From: Okamejei kenojei
Lineage: Eukaryota
Direction of reading: 5' to 3'
NCBI GenBank assembly: GCA_035221665.1
Contig: CM069144.1
Coordinates: forward strand, 48,298,001-48,362,000
Length of the DNA: 64,000 nt
Of this stretch, positions 20,313-49,461 are shown one piece after another (positions within the stretch are counted from its first letter, which is position 1; the number at the start of each line of letters is the position of its first letter). A program made the translations under genes and the position numbers. The notes under the pieces are model-generated. The model was not told where the DNA came from and did not search any database. It was given only the letters and a program-made list of their open reading frames with translations.

Positions 20313-20510
20313 TTAAACGTACCATTCGTTAAAGTTCGATGAGAGCGTGCTGTGGTTGGATGTGTGGTGAACTGCAGATGATGTCGGGGACATTGAACTG
20401 TTGGTCTGGTTTTCTGTAGAGGGCGACACGATGGTAGGGGGTGTTGAGGATTCGTAGCCAGAACTTGCCGCAGGAGAAGGCTGTGACCCTTGAGAGGCTG
20501 CTTCGTGGAC
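20313..20510 (-). CDS. zic1: Zic1 coding exon 3 (Ser-rich C-terminus)
   Basis: Acceptor TTTTTGTAG|GTC. My translation is [68 protein letters not shown], ending in the Zic1-3 NFNEWYV motif. Spliced CDS is 1338 nt (445 aa). This frame is absent from the ORF track. Confidence 0.96.
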
Positions 20511-21240: not shown

Positions 21241-22672
21241 ACCGGGCATGTGCGTGAGTGTACATACAAAAGTACTAAACTTATTTTTTTTAAAACAAAG
21301 AAAAGCAGCCATCATGAAAACAAATACGTATTTTGGATCACCCTGCCTCACGATTTTTTCAGCTATGCCTCACGTCTCCTAAATATCTGCAGCATGATTA
21401 GATTATGTCCCCATCCTCACTGTTTAGAATTTTATGGCGGATGAATCACAGATTAATAATCGTTTACTTAATTTATATTATCGACACTGACTAGTTACAA
21501 GACATTGCAGCTGCCGTAGCGGCCTTACATGCATATATACCCACGAGTAATTGTTTTGTTTTAATTGCAATAATATCTCAAATAAAGTTGAAAATAGGTA
21601 CCTGACTAGTTTTTGGATTCAAATTCTTATTTAAAACATTGATTCTCCCTGACACAAGCATAGCTTCGCTAATAGACTAATACAGCCGTTGTAACGCAAA
21701 TGCTGAAATAGCATTTTAAACAGACAACGGAAATGATTATTTGCTAATTCTATTTGCATTTTCGCTTTAATTAAACCGTTTCCAATTCTGTTTATTTAAA
21801 ATAAGAGTTAGTGGACATCTCATGCAGTGAAGTGAATTGTTGTTAAGTGCCCCTGGTGGTTTTGCAGTCGAGAAAATGTTAAATCTCGACTTTGCTAAAT
21901 CTTTACAACAACCTCGCCATTATGTGCCACTAACATGGACATTGTTGTCGAGCGCATTTTTTTTCACAAACAAACTGTAAACCAAGTTTTAACAAGGCGA
22001 TAAACCCGGGAAGATCCCAATATGTATGTATCACAGTAGGAACATATTATACCCATATATACTCGGACACGCGCTCGTACACATATACAATCACGCACAT
22101 AATATTTACGCGCAAATATATTTACATGAATAGAATTTTGTATCGACGAAAGTTGATCTCGCGGCTTTATGTAATCCACTAACACATATATGTGTAAAAT
22201 AATTACTATCAATAAAGAAGCCAAACTAAAGGGAGTGAAAAAAAAAACATAAGTATATGCTCTTTCGGGTGTGAATTTCTAACGAAACCAAGCAACCAAA
22301 TGTATTCTCATGTTTAGATAAAATTGACTATTAAATTGAAAATAAACTCTACTACGACGTATATTAGGTAAACTGATTGTACTTGAATTTTTTTTTAATG
22401 TATAGTATTTCATGATTTGGAACCGCGGTAAATATATATTTTTCTTATTGTTTAAAGAACCGCAGCCACAACAAGGAACATCAAGAGTTAAGGAACATCA
22501 AAGTGCTAAACATGCGAATTTTATTCTGACATGATATTTATTTGCATATGTATTGTTAAAATTGTTACTGAATAAATAATCTGGGAGACCTGTTTATTAA
22601 TATGATAGAAACGATCATAAACGCTCCGTAATATTTAACTTCTCCTTGATTTTTAAAAATAATTCTCCATAC

Positions 22673-23648
22673 CTGTGTGAGTTCTTTTGTGGATCTTGAG
22701 ATTTTCTGATCGAGCAAAGACTTTGCCGCAGCCGGGAAATGGACAGGGAAAAGGTTTCTCGCCAGTGTGGACTCTGATGTGATTTACAAGTTTATATTTG
22801 GCTTTGAAAGGCTTTCCCTCTCTTGAACACTCTTCCCAGAAACAGATATGGTTCGACTGTTCTGGTCCCCCTACGTGTTCCACAGTTACGTGAGTAACTA
22901 GTTCGTGCATCGTGCTAAAAGTTTTGTTGCATGATTTTTTAGGATTCGTCAACTGTTCGGGCTCTATCCATTTACATATCAGTTCTTGCTTTATGGGCTG
23001 CCTCATATAACGAAAGAAGGCCCCGGCCCCATGGTGGGCCGCCATGTTCATGTTCATGGGACCATAACTGTGTAGCTGGGTCGAGGCGTAGTGGTCCGAT
23101 CTGGGACTAGTGACCTGGCTGTATTGGTCTGCTCTGCCATACATGTCCCCAGAAAAGCCTAAGCGCATTTGCCCGTTCATTACATGTGCATTTGGAGAAG
23201 CGTGGGTCGTCGCCTGCTCGTGAAGCCCCGGAAAGAGTAGATGCCCCGCAGCGTCGGTATGTCCATGGGGTCCGGCAAAACTGCCCGCAGCCGCGGCCGA
23301 AGCGAACAGGCTGTGACCGGCACTTGCCGCCGCCGCTTCCCCAAAGCCCCGATTGCGAAACAAGAAGTCCCGGGTCGAGTTGAAAGCAGCGCTGCTGTAC
23401 GAACTCACATGGCCGGGGTGGTGACCCAGAGCCGCGGCGTAGCCTGGTGCCTGCGACGTGAAGGCAGTTTGACCCGATGCGAGATCGTGAGTGCTGGGGC
23501 TGATTTTAAAAGCACCCATCCCGTCAGCGAAAGGATTTATCCCCAGTCCCACTTCTCGGTCGTTGACATCGCCTGTTGAGTGATGTCGGGATGATCCGAA
23601 GGTAGTCACTCCTAGAGTAGGATATTGAGGTCCAGCGTCCAGAAGCAT
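22673..23648 (-). CDS. zic1: Zic1 coding exon 1 (N-terminus, ZOC motif, ZF-NC, zinc fingers 1-3)
   Basis: Begins [24 protein letters not shown] (Zic1 N-terminus) at ATG 23648. Contains the ZOC motif [31 protein letters not shown] and C2H2 fingers up to HKRTHTG. Ends at a phase-1 donor CAG|GTATGG; 976 nt. Confidence 0.97.
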
Positions 23649-36211: not shown

Positions 36212-37358
36212 ATGGATGCTTTGGGGACTCCGATGGTGGACCCATCGTTCGCCAAGCGAAACCCAGCGCTGAGATTAGTAGACTTGGCAGGAGCGCACCA
36301 CCATCATCATCATCACCATCCCCCCCAGAGCATGACAGGCTTCCCGGGGCTCAGCGGCCATCCCCACTCAATGGCACACACGCACCCTGGGGAGAATACT
36401 GGAGAACCCCGCCTGGGGCCGAGTCCATTCGGGCCTGAACACATGGGGCACCCTGCAGCCGCCGCGGCACTTAAACTCAGCCCATCCCATCCCCATCACC
36501 ACCACCACCACCACCATCACCATCATATGGCAGGCCACGCTGATGTTGTCTCCAATCCAACGGCAGCGTATGGCCCAGCGCAGGCGGCAGCAGCAGTCAG
36601 TTATTCGGTCTCGCACTCTCACGCCAGCTATACTGCCCAGGCTATCTCGGCAGGTAGAGACTTCCTCATCCGCAGAGATCTGACATCCTCAGTCATGCCT
36701 GGCCTCACAGATCAATATCCTGGCACGAGTTCTCACCACGGAATGTTTGTATCAACAACAGGTAGCTATCCCGGACACCATGGTCACCCCGAGGCTGGAA
36801 ACCACTCTCTTTTCCCAGGACTCCATGATCAGACTCCCCATCCAGCCCCAACTGGACACCATCTGAACGGACAGTTAAGACTGGGGCTACCTGGAGATAT
36901 GTACGCCAGGTCTGAACACTACGGCCAAGTGGCAAGTTCCAGGAGTGATCCTTTTGCCTCTTCCCCTCTACATAGCTACGGTGGCATGAACCTAGCAGCC
37001 CACCACGGCCCAGGTGCTTTCTTTCGCTACATGAGGCAACCTATCAAGCAGGAACTGATCTGCAAGTGGACTGAGCCGGACCCTGTCACTAAAAAACCAT
37101 GCTCAAAAACTTTTAGCACGATGCACGAACTTGTTACTCACGTAACTGTGGAACACGTAGGGGGACCAGAGCAGTCGAACCATATCTGTTTCTGGGAAGA
37201 GTGTCCAAGAGAGGGAAAGCCTTTCAAAGCCAAATATAAACTTGTAAATCACATCAGAGTCCACACTGGCGAGAAACCATTTCCCTGCCCATTCCCCGGC
37301 TGCGGCAAAGTCTTTGCTCGATCAGAAAATCTCAAGATCCACAAAAGAACTCACACAG
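36212..37358 (+). CDS. zic4: Zic4 coding exon 1 (long His-rich N-terminus, ZF-NC, zinc fingers 1-3)
   Basis: [32 protein letters not shown] is the non-mammalian Zic4-type N-terminus. Also [26 protein letters not shown] and C2H2 fingers. Phase-1 donor CAG|GTCAGT; 1147 nt; head-to-head with zic1. Confidence 0.96.
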
Positions 37359-40300
37359 GTCAGTACCTTAGAAGGATCGTTATTGCATGTTTATTTCATT
37401 TCCGATGTGCAGAAGTTAACAAAATAATAAAATAAATCTGTCGGTTTATTACCAGTGGGACTTCAATACAAACGCAGAGTGACGCTGTTTTTGTTATGTG
37501 TTTTGGAATTTAGCCTAATTTTCCCAGCATATATATAAATGACGCAGCTCTGAGAACTTCGTAATGTTGTGGGTAATAAATAATCGACATTGTTTTAGCT
37601 GTAACTGGTCTTATAGGTTCAAATTATGAAGCCGCGCAGGATCAATTTCTGTAAAAAAATGAAGACACTATTTTTTTATATTTCAGGCGCAGTTAAAAGG
37701 CTTATTTTTGCGAAAGCATCATCCTCAAGTATCTGTGAACGTTGTTTTGATATAAACTAGCTTTAAATGAGAACTTTTGCAGATTTTTTAAAAGAGAAAG
37801 TAATGAGTATATTTCCTGTTAATTTTGCGAGAATCTAGAAACATAAACTTGATCATTTTAATGTTTTAATGTTCAATATCATATTTTGCATCTGTTCGGA
37901 ACTTATGAGAGTTTTACCGTCTCCACTGATTATTATTTATAGAGCCAAACATGTTATAAGCCTCAAGAGTAAAGAAAGCAAGTGTTCAGGCCTAGTTTTT
38001 CGAAAAATGCCTTTTTGCAGAACCATTTGTGAAACTTGGGCCTGTGTCAAAAACATCTGCTAGTTTTAGTTAAGCCGCAAGTAAATTGCGTAGATCGAAG
38101 CTTACTGAAAGCTGTTTTTGAACTTCCCAGGACAAGCTATAAGTAATGAAACTGCACGTAAAAATTTCACACTCTCGGGAACAGCTTCTATTAATTGGTT
38201 TTAAGCAGCGGTTTGACGCGTCGCTGGCACGTTCCTCGCACTGAGCTCTGCTTACGCGCGGCCTTGCTGGGGTACAAAATATTAAAGGGTAACGTAGACC
38301 CCTCGAAATCTACCCTCCCTCCCCCCCCCCCCCCCGCTCACCTCCCACCTTCCCATACTCTCAAGCCCTCACACCCTCTGCTCCCCACCCCCACCCAATA
38401 CCGGCTATCTCCTTAGACGCTGCACATATTTCAGTTCCATTATCTATTCGGCGGGCAGCAAAACATGTTTTGTTGGCCGTGGTTAGTCCAAGTATAGTTG
38501 GCGAAGGGAAATATGGGGGAGGGCCAGGGAACGAAAGCGGAGGAGGGGGGGGGGGGGGGGGGGGGGGTGATAGGTGGGGGAGGCGAATGTTTGGAGTGGT
38601 GAAAGAGAGAAGGATTCTCCGTGAAATCAATGGACATAATTTAAACGAGGCAGTATGCTGCACTACAACTTCCATTCGCCCCGTAATCGTGAAATGTGGG
38701 TTAGCTTTCTATCGATCGAAGTCCACTTTCAGTGTATATCGGATCAAGAGGTGGTTTGTGACCATTTTTGTTTACATGAATTATCATGGGTGCATATTAA
38801 GAACAAAATAAATGTTTCCTCTATATATTGTAAACGAGTCAGCACAGATGGCGCTGTATAATACTGCTTATGGGAGCGGGGTGGGGGGGGGGGGGGGGGC
38901 GATAAAATGCATAGACCATATTTCAGAAATGTATCAGGTCATGGCGTTATTCCGTCCTATATTTTTAAATGGTGGAGTATGTTACACATGCAAATGTTTT
39001 CTGTGTTGCAGGCGCAGGGCAGGCGCGCTGCCTATGCGTATCTGACACTTGATAGCATTGTATTGTGCTTGCCTAAACAAACTTTCCCAGCATTTCATCG
39101 ACTTCAGCTCAGCAGTTTAGAGTGCTGAGCACTTAATTTACAAGAGCTTTTCATTCGACCCACCGTATATCTATTTATTTAAACTAATATAGCAACCAAT
39201 GAAAGGGCCGAATGTTTTGCAGCGCCGAATGCTCACACATTTCCATATTTCAGTTAAATAGCGTTCTCCATATGTTGCAATTAATCACTGTAATTATGAT
39301 AAATATTGCATTTCTCTTTCAGTTTCAAATTGAAAATACTAATGTTGCTAAATTCTTAAATAAAAAATAGCAAGTATAGTAATTCTATTAACAAAGTAAT
39401 TATCTTGTAAAATATTCATGTCGTTTGATTGGCTTCAGTCCTTTATAGGCAGGTTTTATTGAATTGAAATCCCGTCCCTTTTACATTATTTATTTCAACA
39501 AGCATGAAAAGATCGCCTCTGGGTAAACAAAGGCTTCAGTAGTTCTGTCACCTCACTTATAAAATATTACCACTTAAGGTTTAAACCTGGAATTAAACGT
39601 AGATATTAAAATAATTTATTAGAATGTGCAAACAGCTTGTGGAGTTTATCACCAGGTAGCCATCTTCCCTTAAGTTATCTGATGCAAAGTTGAGGAAGGC
39701 CATTGAGACTATTTTTAAAATATTTCAGCCAGGGTTAAGCTAGCTGGTGAAATGACAGTTAACAAGGATTGGTCGCAGTTAATCTTACATTACTCACTCT
39801 TTTATACACAGCATTAATAGTAAAGAAGGAGAAATGTGTAGCCAGGAGGAGTTTAGAGCTCCCGGGAATTGTCAGAGCAGACTTCATGCTCGTAGTGTCG
39901 GACGCTCCAGACACGGCACAATAACAGTGTTTATGCGTCTGGGCTTCCCCATGGGCCCACTAACTTACTACTAGCTTGTACTACACTAATATCGTTGATT
40001 GGCCGTCTCAACCTAGCAAGTGAAGGTCAAATTATTCTAACGGCTTTCTGAACGTTTGGCTAATTACGGTGCAATATTAAATCGACATTTTGAGAGTTCG
40101 GGGAAAAGAACTCAGTTGCAAAGCACGTAGCTTTTCACTGTAGCTGCTTATATTGACTGCTGATGTCGTTCATTGTGTTAAGCTTAGATTTAATGAAGTT
40201 ATTTTTAAAATTAAGTTAATTATCAATATGATTTTTTTTTGCTATTTTCCGGTTTTGGTCCGCCAGGAGTTTATTGCAAACCACAAGAGCGTGGCTGAAT

Positions 40301-40523
40301 GATGGATACCAGCTAGATAGAATAACGTATATTGTAATCTAAAATATAGTGGCCGCAACATAAAACTATAATTCCTCACGTGGTTATTTCATTATTTATT
40401 AAAACACGGGTTAGTGACTAATGTGTACTTTTAATAGTGGAAGATAATACCTTATCGTCAATAATGAAAAATATACCTTAACGTTTGTGACTCATCATGC
40501 TGCCCCTTGTGGTTTCCTTTTAG

Positions 40524-40960
40524 GTGAAAAACCCTTTAAATGCGAGTTTGAAGGCTGTGACAGACGTTTTGCTAACAGCAGCGACAGGAAAAAGCACTCT
40601 CATGTGCATACAAGTGACAAGCCCTATAACTGCAAAGTAAGAGGCTGTGATAAATCGTACACGCACCCCAGTTCCCTCCGTAAGCATATGAAGGTCCACT
40701 GCAAATCTCCTCCTCCAAGCTCGGGCTACGAATCCTCCACCCCTTCGCTGGTATCTCCGTCCTCGGACTCAGGTCGGGACCCCCCGGCTCCAGCCTCTCA
40801 GCTTGACCCCATCACATCATCCCACGCAGCTAACCTGAGCGAATGGTATGTGTGTCAGAGCACGGGAGCAAGTGGAATTCCAACTCCTCCAAGCAATTCA
40901 TCATCGCCTGGACCAGGAGAACATTCTTACAGGAACTCTGATCCCAGAACTATTATCTAA
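40524..40960 (+). CDS. zic4: Zic4 coding exon 2 (zinc fingers 4-5 and C-terminus)
   Basis: Acceptor TTTCCTTTTAG|GT. Encodes [70 protein letters not shown]...NLSEWYVCQ...RTII-TAA. KHSH and CKVRGC are Zic4/5 signatures, and there is no second intron. Spliced CDS is 1584 nt (527 aa). Confidence 0.96.
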
Positions 40961-41688
40961 CGCGGATCGTAAACTATCTGGACATACCTTCGCTATAAGA
41001 ACTCTTAACTAAATATGTGTTCATTAGATGTTTGCAATCCCAAACGTACTGCAACATTTAAGTTGAAATACATGAATTTCTGGAGGCCCAGCGCCTAGGT
41101 TTTAGGTAATGTGAACATTATGTAATGCACTGGCATGCACAAAATGATACGGACGTGTATTAAAGAGGAAGTATCCTGAATTAAATCTTACATTAATTGA
41201 AGTCAATGGTCAGGAATAGCGCACCTTCAACTACAAAACATTTCCGATCGCAAGAGCCCCCACCTTACCCCTCTCCCACACCATTACCTTGTATAATTAT
41301 TTTCCATAACATTTTGCATATAAGGCCAACTACTTTTGATTTTTTGGGGTTATTTTCCTATTTTTGGGAGAAAATAAACCATTATATCGTTTTGGAGAGG
41401 GAGTATATTACATAGCCATTTGAACGAAAGGGGAGCGTTAGAAGATGCACCTGATGTGAATAGTAACGTACAGAAGCCTTTATAGGCCGAAACAAGATGG
41501 ATACTGTCTGGTTAAAAGCCTTCCTTGGCTTTAACATTTCACAAAAAAGCTTCGTATTGGACATTTTGCAGAATAAGCTTGTAAATCATATAAATATTGG
41601 TATTGATATGCACCGTCCGTCTTTGTTAAGTAATTCGTTCATGATTTCCTGTTTTGTTTTTCTTGACATAATTTATTTAAAATGTTAC

Positions 41689-41694
41689 AATAAA
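41689..41694 (+). terminator. candidate zic4 proximal polyadenylation signal
   Basis: AATAAA ~730 nt after the stop, followed by T/GT-rich sequence. Alternatives at 41373 and 41891. Confidence 0.45.
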
Positions 41695-43592
41695 ACACAT
41701 TTTGTATAAGTGAACCAAAGTGTTTTATTACAGGGCAGTTAGATAGTGTAAATTTTTTTCTTAGATTATTTTAAATCATTAGCGTGTGTTCTGTAAATTA
41801 TAGTGATTTATAAATGGAGGTTTTGATTAGGTAGGATAATTTTCTTTCTGTATTTTGATCCTATTTTGGTATACATGAGTACTGGTTTGTAATAAATTGA
41901 TAATGATATGAATACGGTTTAAAGACATTTTAGCTATTTACATATTTGTTGTTAATATGTATAGTAAAGCATTGGTTCTGTCCTATCTGTGACATATATG
42001 ATTAACCACATTTAAAGAACAGCTCCAACTCGTTGACCTGGTCATTTTGTTTGTCAGGAGCAGCACATTTCTTAATACATCGTTTTACGCCACAAACACG
42101 TTATTCAAAGCGCATTTTCCGTCCGAAAATAAGTAACATCGGCGACGCACATTTTCCTATTTGTGGAACCCTAAATATAGTTGGTGAAGAAGTTGTATGG
42201 CCGAGGTATTGTTACGGTGAAATGCTACTGTTTAAGCAGAAGTCGTTGGAATGTGTACTGAAACCACTTTGTATTTTGCCAATGTACGAATGAACTGTGC
42301 AGAGTTTCTGAATGTATTGTCAAATAACTCACCAATAAATGCGTCTTGGAAAATTAATAAATTTTGTAAAATAAGATTAAAACTGACTGTTTGCTGCACT
42401 TGGGATTGGAAATCGAAATTCACGTAGATGCCAATTATACAAATGATTGCCGATAAACAGAAGGGTAGTAATAAACCAAAGACATACAGATGTATAAATT
42501 CTTCGTGATTATAGTATTGCTGAAAACATTTAATCAGCACAAGAAACCATTGATTAATCGCCACCATGCACAAATTAATTCCGTATCAGTTTAGTGCAAA
42601 AGTCCCCCTGTGACACATTTGATGAATCAAAATCTATATTTGACAAAAATTATAATCCTTCGGGAATCCAATAAACTACAAAATAAACTTTGTTACATAA
42701 ACCCAAACTGCGATTAGTAATTGAAATAAGGACCTTTGTTTTTCTCTCTCTATTCTTCAAACATGTACACACAAAGACCAGGAGTGTAAGGATTGTCATT
42801 AGCAGTTATAGCAGCCTGGCCGTTTTCTCTTCACGTTTTCTGGTGAGGGGCCTACCAAATGGGCATATAACGTGTTGCACAGTAAGGGGACGAGGTTGCT
42901 ATGCAAGATAAATAATATGGGGTTAATATATTCGTTTCTCCCTTAGAGAAAGCCTAATCTACTATATATTCCAGTAAAGTCCGGACAGCTGTGAAAAGAT
43001 ATTAATAATCCAATCATCTTTTCCTCAGTTTGCTCTGTTGCACCGCCAGTGTGTAAGGCTGTCTGACCTCTTTCGCAGCTTATTAAATAAGTTATTGTTC
43101 TTTTTCCTTAATTACGTTTTCTTGAGAGATCTAGCGCCGAAAACCATTGCACGACAGAAAAAAATCTATTCATGAAACGAAATTTGAAAGTGAAGAAGCG
43201 CATTGTCAAAAAGTCATTGGCGGTATTTATGTCTTAAAGTGTTCAAATTCACGTGAAAAACACGGTGAGCAGCCGAACCTATTTTTTGACTAGTAATAGA
43301 CTCAGAAGAAGGGGAGGGGGGGGGGGGGCGGGGGGAGTTCTACTATAGTCCATAAAAGATGAATAATTGTAGGGAGAGAAAGTGTCCACATATTTATTTT
43401 ATTGCACTTTGCGGGAAAAAAACGCGAAAAACGCAGAAAAACGCAACAAGAAACGGTTAAAACGAATTCAATCAACATTTGGTTAATTTTGCAAACTTTT
43501 GGAGCCGCAGAGGTTACAACATTCTATTCAGTTTTATAAATGGAATCATTAGGCTGGATAGTTGTTCACCTTTTTTTATTTACTTGTTGCAG

Positions 43593-43716
43593 ATGTCCAC
43601 TCAGTTGCTATAGGTAATCCAGGGAGCCTCAACTCAAAAGCCTGAATATCCTCGTGGAAACATCAAAGCAGAAAAATCTACAAAGAAGTATTTCTTCGCA
43701 ACGGTGAATCTTCATG
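43593..43716 (+). other. zic4: probable alternative downstream exon of zic4; it completes a TG|A stop codon and may extend further as 3' UTR
   Basis: Strong acceptor CTTTTTTTATTTACTTGTTGCAG|ATGTCCAC and an internal donor ATG|GTGAGT at 43717. It pairs with donor ATG|GTATGT at 40846. From memory it resembles the start of the mammalian ZIC4 last exon (not searched). Confidence 0.65.
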
Positions 43717-44106
43717 GTGAGTTAGGCTTTCTATGGCAATAGACAAGTCATACTTAAATACTGAAAGCCAAGTCTGGAGCTGGTCCAGTCTTCTCATTAA
43801 GGACGGAATGCTTACTTCTTTAAGAGCCATATGTAAGCAAGTTTTTGTGTGCATTTATATGAGTGTATACATATATTTGTTTTACGGCGTTACTATTTTA
43901 GAGACCAAAGAAAGCCTCGTGCGAAGCATGACTTATAACAAACATAAATGAAACATCAAGTGTAACCCCACAACCTCTAGCGAAGAGAAAGGGACGGCTT
44001 GAGATAGAGTGTCAATTAACTTTTTTTATTTCTTATTCCTATTTGATATAGTTACTCAGGGAGTAAGTTCAACTTTCTGTAAACTTTAAAAAAACATTTG
44101 GAGATT

Positions 44107-44143
<37 letters not shown>

Positions 44144-47100
44144 CCACCCAAAAGAACGAGAGAGAAAATAAAAGACACAAGGACTCTAATCAGACTCGGG
44201 CTGTTCAAAGAGCCGGGTTTTAGAATTCCAAAGTGTGAGTTTTATGGTACATCAACACCGCACACTAGGATCGCTATGGTAATGAACAGAGCAATAGCAA
44301 ACTGCCTTCAAAGGAGGCACATTCGATTCGAGACACTCTATTAAGATACATTTGCGTTGACCTTTGGTTTCATGCTAGGTTAGTACAGTCAATCTTCACT
44401 TCATCATAATCTTTAATATTTTGGGGTTGGGACGAATTCTCAGGCGGATTAGGCATGGTCTGAATCGAACTAGTTTGGCTCCTCCGAGAGGGAGCACAGC
44501 GGGTTCGATCTGGGCCCCGTGAGCAGATAAGTTGGGAATTCGTCTTTTAGTAATTGTCTTGTTGTTTATTTTATACAAGTACCCAGTGAATGGCGAAAAA
44601 TAAACACGGTGAAAAATAACCAAACAGTCGAGTCCTCTTTAGTGAAAACCCTTGTGGCTGTATAAAAAGGATGGTACATTCTCTATTCAGGGCAAAATTC
44701 TTTGAAGTGGGAGTTATTATCTAAGAGATTCTTCCTCGTCGTCTTAACGACGCTGATGAAACGGAAAGCGTTCTTTGTCAGCGATTTGTTCTCCTCTCTG
44801 TCAAGCGTTTTCTGTCCGTTAGTTCTGAACCGTTCCTAAAGAGATAAAAGATAGAAGGACGTGTACAGACCGGACAGTGTTGGAATTGTTGATACATTTT
44901 AGACTACAGGACAATTGTGCGCCGATGTAAGGATGCTATACCTGTTCAAATCTGTATTCAAAAATGCTAGTCCATTCTTGAAAGTTCAAATGTATTCAAC
45001 TGATAAAATAATTGCTCTGGAAAGATTGCTGTGGCTTAAAAGGTCACAATCTTTGAGTGAAGAGTAGGACATTTGCCAAAGATTTTTCTAAAATGTATAC
45101 ATTCATTACGTGAATGTTCTCTGCATTAATAACGACCAATTCATGTTCTGGTAGTGATGCAATATCAGTTCGGAGAAACATTAACTCTCGGTCTTTACAT
45201 TTCAAACTACTACCCGGTCGCCATTTTGTTCAATGCGATTTTCTACAGTATTCTAGTGAGGTTTAGTCGCAGTGATCTCTATTACTCAAAGACCATTTTA
45301 TATTCCCCCTCCTCGTTTCATTTAATTTGCCTCGTCCAAATTCTATTAGCAACATACCCTTGAACAGCATTGCCTTTGGGGTCTTGTATTTAGCTTTAAT
45401 CGAAGATGGGGCAAACTTCATTGAACAAAGTGTTCACCTAATAAGTAAATGTAAAACGTAAGCATAATAATATGGGCTGCATTGAATGTACAACAGAATT
45501 GCCTATTACATGATGACCTTTTATATTGCAATTGTTAAACGGTCATATTGCATCTAACATAAATAAAAACACGATAAATGTGGATTTCTCTTGTTGTGTA
45601 CTATCCCTGAGCGGATTTAGGGCCGAGTTCTCCTGACTAAGTAAATGCACTTTCCCCACTCTCTTCAATCGCTTGTAATGCCTACATCTTTTGTTTGCTG
45701 TTCACTTTTTGATTATGTAGGGGTTTTTTTCTGAGAACACGGAAAATGGGCACTATACAATAAGTCCTAAGCATTACATTGCGCCTGACACCACTAAAAA
45801 AGGAATCTGTTAAAAAGCATTCAACCTGAAACAGATTCTTTCAGCAGATTTTTTTCACCAAACCGTGTTTAACAATATAAGCTAGTTTTAATTAAACTAT
45901 TCATAGCTCTATCCTTGTCGCCTTCAAAACTGGCCACAATTCCGTCCTGTTAGTTTTTATGTTAAAGTCCACGCTAAGTTAGGCCCACGGAAACAATAGG
46001 TATTAACTTTTAATCAGGAATTCTTTCGGATGAGATTATTATAGCATCGTGTCACAAATCGATCGCTTTCAAATGTGAGTACATTGGCAATGAAATAAGT
46101 TAGCAGGCTATTCGGTTAGCAAATAGCTGCCTCCCAACATGTCAGGCAAGTTGCAATTTGTAGGGAAGCAATCTTTTAATTAATTTGTTACAATTATTTC
46201 AAAAATTCGCCCAGGATAATCGCGTCCCAAGTCCATGAAACACTTTCTTATTTTGCATGGACATTCAGGGACCTGTAATTTAGACCTGGATCACAGATAA
46301 ATGAATTATTGGAAATACATTTCGATGGAATTATTGGGAACTGCATTAAGTATATTATGTTTCTTAGTGCCATATCATAATGGATACAGAAAATCACCTC
46401 GAAGTGCTGCCGGAGTGCGAGATATTTGTTGTAATCGATAGCCACCCACCCTCATTGTAAACTGTTGTGTTCTGCAGTGATCACATTTTCTTTCAATTGT
46501 TGCTCAAACAGCGCATGCTTACAGCAAACCCCTTAGCGTGGATCTTAAATGACTCGGGGTCATATTTCCCCCTGGTAACTAACAGATAAAAAATAAGCAT
46601 CACATCATGTCATGTTATGTCTGTGTAAATTGTACATGTCAAAATGTTGCGGTTCGCTGTTAAAATATTGCAAGATTACATAATTTAACTTGAATTGTTT
46701 CTGAGGTATGTGGTATTACGTCGGATGAAGTGCTTCCTCGAATCAGTCACGCGATGGTGAAATAGATGGCAAATTACCAAAATGATGGCAAGGTTTCAGC
46801 CAAGTTAATTTGGTTAGAGCTGGATTTATTTCAGTCGAATATCTCTGTTTTGGTAAACAAAAATGGTTAAAACATGCATGTGTCAGTACGAGCTACAAGC
46901 AAACTGACTTTATTGGGAAGGGTTCCCCCCTTTTCTGCACAAACAATCCAGTTCGGCCTATTTCTCGCTCAAAACACAATATAGTCTAAAAGCATACGCA
47001 TGCGCTCTCATTTGCGCTATGGTTGATGGTGAAATGAGCAAGCATTTTTTCCGGTGACTTAACAATTTTTCTGTCGTTTCTAATTTAAGAACCTTTAAGA

Positions 47101-49347
47101 ACCAAGTGGATTTCTAAGTGATAGGAACAGCGAAAATCGAAATTCAATCCCACATTCACCCTATGTTCACATACTTGCTTCCTTCGATATTTGTCCAAAA
47201 TGGTGGTCACAAAAAGTGAAGAGGTGACAACACTTACTAATTAATCCACACGGTGAAAGGCTATAATGCTTGACTGAGGATATGCAGTTATTACACTTGA
47301 CTATAGTCAACAAGAGATGGAAAGGCACGTTAGACAACATGGTGAGAGACGTGTGGCCATCATTAGTGGTTCTTTTATTGACACTGGCTTTTCTTTCTCA
47401 TCGTTGACAAACCATTTTGGAGGGATTCATCCCCTGTTGCTTCCTATCATCTACCCAATCCAAGCTTCTCGAGAGCATTAATTAACGTCCATTCACTGAT
47501 AAGTCGTGACAACAAAGCAATGCATGTATAAGGACTAGTATCCAAAACAACAAGACGACCAGAATACAAAACAATGTAAAAATTAATCAAGTCAAACATT
47601 TGTGCCCCATATTTCTGTCGTGCAAGTAGTCATTTCGCTATTCAATTATCGATTTTGCACAGAAATCAAAAACACGATATCTTATTCCTTGTGATTTTTA
47701 TTAGACATGGAACTTGACGTCAGAATTTATAATCAAAACTGAATTTCAGCAACAGATCGACTAGAACACAATCACCGCAAATCTCTGATCCAATACACTT
47801 ATGAAAAGCATAATGTGTTACGAGAGAAGAGACAAACTCCATTCATAGACATTATACATATTACGTGAAAATTATATGTGATCGATTATGAATAAATGCA
47901 TAAATTTAATCACCCCCTCCCCCCACCACACCCGCACACCACCACCACCCCACCCAGCGCCCCGTTGCGTCTCTTAAGGCTTGTTGAAGATTTTAACCGC
48001 TTCTTGTGGTACAGTATTTAATCGGCAACTTGAATAATAATAAAAATAAGATGGAGTTCTAGATGTATAAACTAATAATATCCGGGTTTAAAGTAAAAAA
48101 AGTCCACTGTGATTTCGAATGAATTTTACTGGGAAAAGCTGACTTCAGTAAAATGCAAGTAACGTTAACAGTAGAATGGCATCGTCGGGAATGAGAAACC
48201 TATTTCACATTATTCAATTCTAGTCTAAAGACCCATCAGATTGCAAAGCGAATAAATTATTGGTTCAAAAAATCATGTTCAGTGCGCCTCAGCTGAACGC
48301 CGTTTGATCCTACACCATTCACCCTGCCATTTATATTTCTTTAATGTGTGACAAGGGAATATTCGCAACTTGGTTAAAAAAACACTCGCCACAACATTAT
48401 TTCAATAATGTTGCTTAATAACTCTTGGTTATGGTGAAACTAATCAGGAGCAGAAATAACGGAAGTTCGCTCCAAGAAACAATATTTGTCCGAAGCAATC
48501 ACCCCTGGTAGAGAATCTGACGTCTTCAACGTCACCCACATGACTTATTAAAATCATACAGCTTCGGTCAGCCTTTGAAGCTGTGGACCATATGTTGATT
48601 TATACAATTCAAAATAAACCGTAGTAACGTCAGATATTATGTGGTGAATATGGTGCCTAAACACTAGATGTAAAGGCATACAGGCGAATAAAGACAAAGC
48701 AAGGCACTGTTTAACCAACGAGTAAGGCTGAATTGAGTCACCGTAGAATCCAAGTGATAGTTAAAATCTATTTACTCTCCCACACAGGCAATAAACATTT
48801 CAAAATCCTTTGTCATTTTATTTTCCTGTCATTCCAAAAGCACAATTAACGCCTTTACTTCATGAACTATTTTAAACATTATTCATGTGACTTATTTATA
48901 TTATAAGCATAAAAAGAGGCATGTCTCAAAAATATTGAACAATCCAGTATTAGTCCTTCTTTGGAACAATTCCTAAGATATCACACTCACAATAAAACGC
49001 GCCTTAACTTTTATTAACCTTAAGTTTATAATCCTGACCTTGAAAACATTAATGATTACGTAGATACTCAAAACAAATATCAAAGCGGAAAAATATTCAT
49101 TCAGTAAAGAACGGTTTGTAGTGTTAACAAACAATTATAGCGATATTTCAGTGTTTGGCTTTTCAGATAAAGGATGGGTATTGTTCAACTAGACTGGTTC
49201 TATACGTTTGCTCGCCCAGATTTGGCATAATACTTATTATATTCGTGAATTTCGATTATTACGGTAATAAATATAAATAATTTTGCTGCTCTAGCAAGAC
49301 CAGACCCGACCTTATTTTTAAAATTCCATTGAAAAGGAACCGTAACC

Positions 49348-49461
49348 TTCTCGACCGAAACGTCACCTATTCCTTCTATCCAGAGATGCTGCCTGTCCCG
49401 CTGAGTTACTCCAGCTTTTCTATCTTCGGTTTAAATCAGCATCTGCACTTCCTTCTTACAC
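49348..49461 (+). mobile_element. Penelope-like terminal fragment
   Basis: tcgaccgaaacgtcacctattccttctatccagagatgctgcctgtcccgctgagttactccagc; same family as 4253 and 6857, truncated within the hammerhead core. Confidence 0.7.

Follow-up and report, generated by a model that had tools for sequence, protein, structure and literature searches.

A block downstream of skate zic4 homologous to a mammalian ZIC4 exon, and a latent splice donor within the EWYV motif

INTRODUCTION

Can one zic4 gene end its product in two ways, with and without the EWYV motif of its C-terminal tail? The question arises at the zic4 locus of the skate Okamejei kenojei (genome size, 2.76 Gb), in a 64,000-nucleotide stretch of DNA that was analyzed as a whole and is called the window here. 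A sequence-only reading of this window had proposed that a donor inside the Trp codon of EWYV is spliced to an acceptor at 43593, that the block behind this acceptor resembles the last exon of human ZIC4, and that the resulting tail-less form already existed as a switch in the gnathostome ancestor. The motif, written NEWYV, is described in the available text of PMC4564895 as conserved in all ZIC proteins but ZIC4 and as having no known function. That text also reports that removal of the last 11 amino acids of ZIC1 raises its activity, which bears on craniosynostosis, whereas the accessible part of PMC13328068 reports that a ZIC1 exon-3 truncation cut luciferase transactivation by 48%, so that the direction of the ZIC1 tail effect depends on the assay.

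RESULTS

The zic4 gene and its long form

Within the window, zic1 (minus strand) and zic4 (plus strand) form a head-to-head pair. The plus-strand gene encodes a five-finger ZIC protein, adjoins zic1 in this arrangement and has its best matches among ZIC4 proteins, as a ZIC4 orthologue would. Its exon 2 product is 97% identical to catshark ZIC4, and by protein similarity the nearest relatives of its tail are skate models (Rhinoraja and Leucoraja). The long form consists of the following parts.

36212..37358, plus strand: zic4 coding exon 1, from the ATG to a phase-1 donor; best matches are ZIC4 of sharks and rays.
40524..40960, plus strand: zic4 coding exon 2, long form through LSEWYV and RTII to the stop; from the sequence and from contigs of runs X4 and X7.
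40961..42374, plus strand: 3' UTR of the long form; contigs of four runs end at 42292-42374, with AATAAA at 42334 and 42356.

Transcript evidence came as contigs from 4 of 24 runs, all of related species and with an RNA origin that is guessed. In contigs of X4 and X7, exon-1 sequence is joined at 40522 and continues through 40845, which shows a spliced long transcript in these relatives, and a contig bridges 40845 unspliced in 4/4 runs. The long-form cleavage site would lie near 42.36 kb. No 40845^43593 joint is listed among the contigs, which leave 43500-43623 uncovered and cannot show absence. One X4 contig at 43687-43849 has a depth of 2.9, similar to that of an X4 contig in intron 1 (2.8) and of an X1 contig at 42765-42922 (3), and it may therefore be background. 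X1 and X4 contigs also run into 40400-40523, the last part of zic4 intron 1, and represent a retained intron, precursor RNA, or DNA.

Two further observations were made by eye. The zinc-finger DNA of zic4 at about 37050-37360 (plus) and that of zic1 at 22670-22990 (minus) look near-identical, synonymous sites included; this suggests gene conversion. Elsewhere in the window, a 202-amino-acid frame at 2653-3261 (minus) resembles what we take to be a fragment of a LINE-type reverse transcriptase.

A latent donor within the motif

40843..40851, plus strand: latent 5' splice site in the Trp codon of EWYV; from the sequence, forced by the spellings of E-W-Y-V, with the same word in zic1, zic5, and zic3.

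The proposed donor, GAA TG/GTATGT (the slash marks the cut), is found as described, with GAA at 40841-43 and the cut at 40845/40846, and its predicted consequence holds as well: joining 40845 to 43593 turns TGG into a TG/A stop, so that the 527-amino-acid protein read through from the ATG at 36212 becomes one of 489 residues that ends in ANLSE and lacks 38 residues. The 3' UTR is predicted to be replaced in full. The donor agrees with the consensus at 6/9 bases, and 488 of the 6,851 GT sites in the window match at least 6/9. Moreover, every spelling of E-W-Y-V reads TG/GTAYGT. Because the W-Y-V codons force this word, its conservation is no evidence for splicing; the codons would supply a built-in donor. 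The same word is indeed present in zic1 in the window (minus, 20317-20327) and at the zic5 and zic3 loci of this genome, the former named by identity to protein P0077 and the latter, like zic6, by its sequence end and arrangement. For the zic6-like gene, a search of L004 and L008 turned up no codon string for EWYV. This zic6-like gene is paired with zic3 in the skate genome; according to the accessible part of PMC6771876, zic6 is retained only in teleosts.

Homology of the acceptor and the downstream block to a mammalian ZIC4 exon

43570..43592, plus strand: pyrimidine tract (16/20 pyrimidines) and CAG acceptor, at the position of the inferred mammalian acceptor.
43593..43716, plus strand: block of 124 nt with homology to a downstream exon of mammalian ZIC4 (123 nt); it begins with the A that TGA would require.
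43709..43745, plus strand: motif common to the zic5 downstream region, containing the donor-like word CATG/GTGAGT (cut at 43716/43717).

The acceptor, too, is present where it had been placed, as a pyrimidine tract with CAG/ATGTCC at 43592/43593, and the interval 40900-50000 contains seven acceptors of similar quality. Since donor and acceptor are each ordinary on their own, it is homology to a mammalian exon that singles out 43593.

This mammalian exon was reconstructed from the predicted proteins of eight ZIC4 gene models, not from DNA. Downstream of the EWYV motif all eight translate a common stretch of 41 amino acids, with differing flanks. The residue at its start is D, N, or H, each with A as second codon base, and the stretch is followed by G, D, E, or A, whose first codon base is G. 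Together these define a 123-nt exon with A as its first and G as its last base, so that acceptor and donor fall in register with 43593 and 43716. When a codon-degenerate profile of this exon was aligned end to end to 43593-43716 (124 nt), 47 of the 61 codon-fixed bases were identical, and the global score was 30.5, compared with -37.6 +/- 7.2 in shuffles (0/2000 reached 30.5) and with -14.7 for the best of 143 pseudo-exons of the window having another start. With the profile left unanchored, the block was the top match in 128 kb, and 3 of 300 shuffled profiles scored as high; tblastn gave E values of 0.003-0.013. A search with the mammalian peptide returned eight matches among 14 candidates, with seven named mammals among them and no intermediate taxa. 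The proposed likeness to the last exon of human ZIC4 is thus supported indirectly, through homology of the block to a mammalian ZIC4 downstream exon with both ends in register, as seen by way of predicted proteins from eight mammalian models. Given that TG needs an A to become TGA, an exon starting with A is likely the one that ends mammalian ZIC4, and this exon likely supplies the A of the ZIC4 stop codon.

Other roles for the block were considered. A coding role for 43593-43716 was rejected on account of four indels in the alignment and a stop in the skate frame, and a protein search with the translated skate block yielded no candidate. A structured RNA element was likewise rejected (no Rfam match with E<=1 across 40800-50000; folding z = -0.8). 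Downstream of 43593, candidate poly(A) signals (AATAAA) occur at 44167, 44599, and 45562.

Short and long ZIC4 forms across species

The exon-2 search gave 1,091 matches, ranked by the long-form query, of which the best 120 were examined; further members came from cluster look-ups. Classified by pattern, 194 ZIC4-like proteins comprised 140 that read through EWYV, 46 that stop at ..SE, and 8 others. Among the matches listed, all 46 short-form models are from tetrapods (caecilian, toad, turtles, lizard, birds, marsupials, and placentals), and the short form is represented by 0/15 cartilaginous-fish rows, 0/2 coelacanth rows, 0/1 lungfish row, and no ray-finned row. These counts cover 15 of the 32 shark-and-ray cluster members and come from mostly predicted models, in a listing that the query biased toward long forms.

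Nine of the short proteins, including those of mouse and rat, are identical to a long protein of the set truncated at the motif. As to the ..SE ending that the sequence-only reading had given for human ZIC4, the tetrapod short form is in these nine pairs an exact cut of the long form at the Trp codon. Exact look-ups with long forms truncated at the motif gave 0/9 for cartilaginous fish, 0/1 for coelacanth, and 0/5 for lungfish and ray-finned fish, in a test that depends on the N-terminus and is weak, since it also missed 4/4 other tetrapods (Xenopus tropicalis, Pelobates, axolotl, and Mauremys); the toad control was found (1/1).

Models from mouse, rat, bat, and opossum (P0204, P0211, P0213, P0215, P0197, and P0183) read through the donor. 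Mammalian read-through models of ZIC4 thus still encode EWYV, a motif reported to be absent from ZIC4.

Duplicated non-coding elements downstream of zic4, zic5, and zic6

44150..44423, plus strand: non-coding element with a copy downstream of zic5 (74% over 280 nt, E 4e-49).
44537..44799, plus strand: non-coding element with copies downstream of zic5 (76%, E 6e-44) and zic6 (68%, E 3e-27).
45771-45895: element common with the zic5 downstream region.
49349-49458: element common with the zic6 downstream region.

The elements downstream of the three genes are colinear at 64-76% identity (compared on the minus strand of L007 and L008). Colinear similarity near paralogues, as expected of duplicated conserved elements, is strong for 44150-44799 and modest for 43709-43745, which matches the zic5 downstream region at 81% (E 0.004). 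From the Trp codon to this motif at the 3' end of the block, the distance is 2,864 nt in zic4 and 2,949 nt in zic5. At zic5, the match to the block itself is modest (local score 67 versus a shuffle maximum of 62; E 0.003-0.004), and the mammalian profile picks out no clear counterpart there, its top score being 20.7 against 32.9; downstream of zic6 the block is not matched, 273 of 300 shuffles scoring equally well. The pyrimidine tract that precedes 43593 has not been retained at zic5, which makes the acceptor look specific to zic4 and favors the earlier proposal.

X-box (RFX)-like words cluster at 43604, 43708, 43727, and 44270, those at 43708 and 43727 falling in the region of the 43709..43745 motif, and two are also retained downstream of zic5. 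Their count, 3 in 171 nt against 13 in 64 kb (0/1000 shuffles reach 2), serves only as a lead, because the consensus was narrowed after the sequence had been viewed.

To judge from their sequences, the elements are older than the split of the zic paralogues. By analogy with the tested enhancer elements around Zic gene pairs that are described in the available parts of PMC6175831 and PMC6771876, those downstream of zic4, zic5, and zic6 are likely candidate enhancers.

DISCUSSION

The reading that we prefer, and hold to be somewhat probable, is that the block is an ancient enhancer-type element and that skate uses the splice from the Trp codon little or not at all, whereas in tetrapods it likely leads to a regular last exon. 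Exon 2 would then be of the composite type: the 527-amino-acid form would result from cleavage near 42.36 kb, a point 1.2 kb short of the acceptor, and where splicing to 43593 prevailed, TG and A would make the stop and remove 38 residues including the EWYV tail. In mammals, the homologous exon would contribute the A of the stop, and loss of the tail may alter the activity of ZIC4 as it does that of ZIC1. Two features count against this explanation, namely, the strong acceptor at the exact homologous base and the tract that is not kept at zic5; both would be in keeping with zic4 splicing having been under selection in the two lineages.

These features form the core of the case for a bolder claim, which we regard as possible yet doubtful: that skate makes the 489-amino-acid isoform at a meaningful, regulated level, by a switch dating from the gnathostome ancestor. 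The acceptor and the first base A are kept at the exact homologous position, the pyrimidine tract looks peculiar to zic4, annotated short forms exist in toad and caecilian besides amniotes, and ZIC1 lacking its last 11 amino acids has a changed activity in Xenopus (PMC4564895, available text). However, the donor is forced by the motif and requires no selection on splicing, the paralogous elements at zic5 and zic6 imply that the block is likely conserved for another reason, and the weak look-up shows no short model beyond tetrapods. What is left of the proposed ancestral switch is thus the homology and the tetrapod short forms that end at this codon; a switch to the short isoform in skate or in the gnathostome ancestor stays hypothetical. 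Possible yet doubtful, too, is a wider reading in which the EWYV motif has served zic4 as its own donor from the gnathostome ancestor onward, together with an acceptor in an enhancer predating the zic4/zic5 split, to switch between tail-bearing and tail-less proteins. Mammals would then have shifted the ratio instead of losing the motif, and an EWYV-bearing ZIC4 that has been overlooked would still be made in them.

Alternatively, the block might be an internal poison exon, entered at 43593 and left at 43716, with the stop about 120 nt before the junction and nonsense-mediated decay as the outcome. Decay is expected of a transcript whose stop precedes a junction by more than 50-55 nt, and 8/8 mammalian models exit at the base corresponding to 43716, which in skate is followed by GTGAGT. 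Nevertheless, we consider this improbable: the donor word overlaps an X-box-like word and sits inside a motif that zic5 has kept as well, the eight models run into eight different sequences, like ab initio guesses, no further exon was found downstream of the block, and the tetrapod short forms are annotated as coding. Finally, although sites of this quality are common and the unanchored significance is only about 0.01, a chance resemblance between two unrelated sites is very improbable in view of the end-to-end alignment with both boundaries in register, which none of the 2,000 shuffles equaled, and of a matched base that had been named in advance.

A literature search found no paper on a zic4 splice of the 40845/43593 type, older subscription papers on Zic4 structure lying outside its scope, and the available parts of PMC6175831, PMC6771876, PMC2908108, and PMC6158797 make no mention of it. 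For human cerebellum, many ZIC4 isoforms are reported in the accessible text of PMC10807796, and in that of PMC7403390 human ZIC4 was assayed as a 1005-bp coding sequence. Assays with the 334-amino-acid human ZIC4 would, we suggest, test only the tail-less form. ZIC4 genes from shark to mouse encode EWYV and the short form stops exactly at the motif, which provides a natural protein pair for tests of the motif; in addition, the locus presents a case, one that can be dated, of a last exon likely recruited from an enhancer. The reach of these results is limited to ZIC biology and exon evolution.

Among known systems, the IgM heavy chain has a composite terminal exon in which polyadenylation competes with an internal donor. 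The arrangement at zic4 is alike in that cleavage past an internal donor, as opposed to splicing to a distal last exon, sets the C-terminus, but at zic4 the junction itself makes the stop. The closest counterpart of the 489-amino-acid form is the mammalian ZIC4 short form (334-335 amino acids, ending ..SE; mouse P0205), which likewise stops at the codon before Trp and has a downstream exon homologous to the skate 43593-43716 block. This short form is annotated in tetrapods, whereas only the long form was found in cartilaginous fish. The skate elements also resemble the conserved elements, shared from human to fish, that flank Zic pairs as enhancers in the available parts of PMC6175831 and PMC6771876; there, Zic3-ME has a paralogous copy near Zic2 that overlaps with a coding exon, while those in skate lie 3-9 kb downstream of zic4, zic5, and zic6 and were matched to no tested Zic enhancer. 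An alternative last exon of ZIC3 is described in the accessible text of PMC11470249 as well as in that of PMC3157443, where the exon of ZIC3-B was found as a conserved downstream block and replaces the NEWYV-bearing C-terminus, as in the zic4 case. In ZIC3-B, however, a coding exon 4 replaces exon 3 from the normal exon-2 donor, whereas in zic4 the donor lies within EWYV itself, the new exon contributes a single base but no residue, and the zinc fingers stay as they are.
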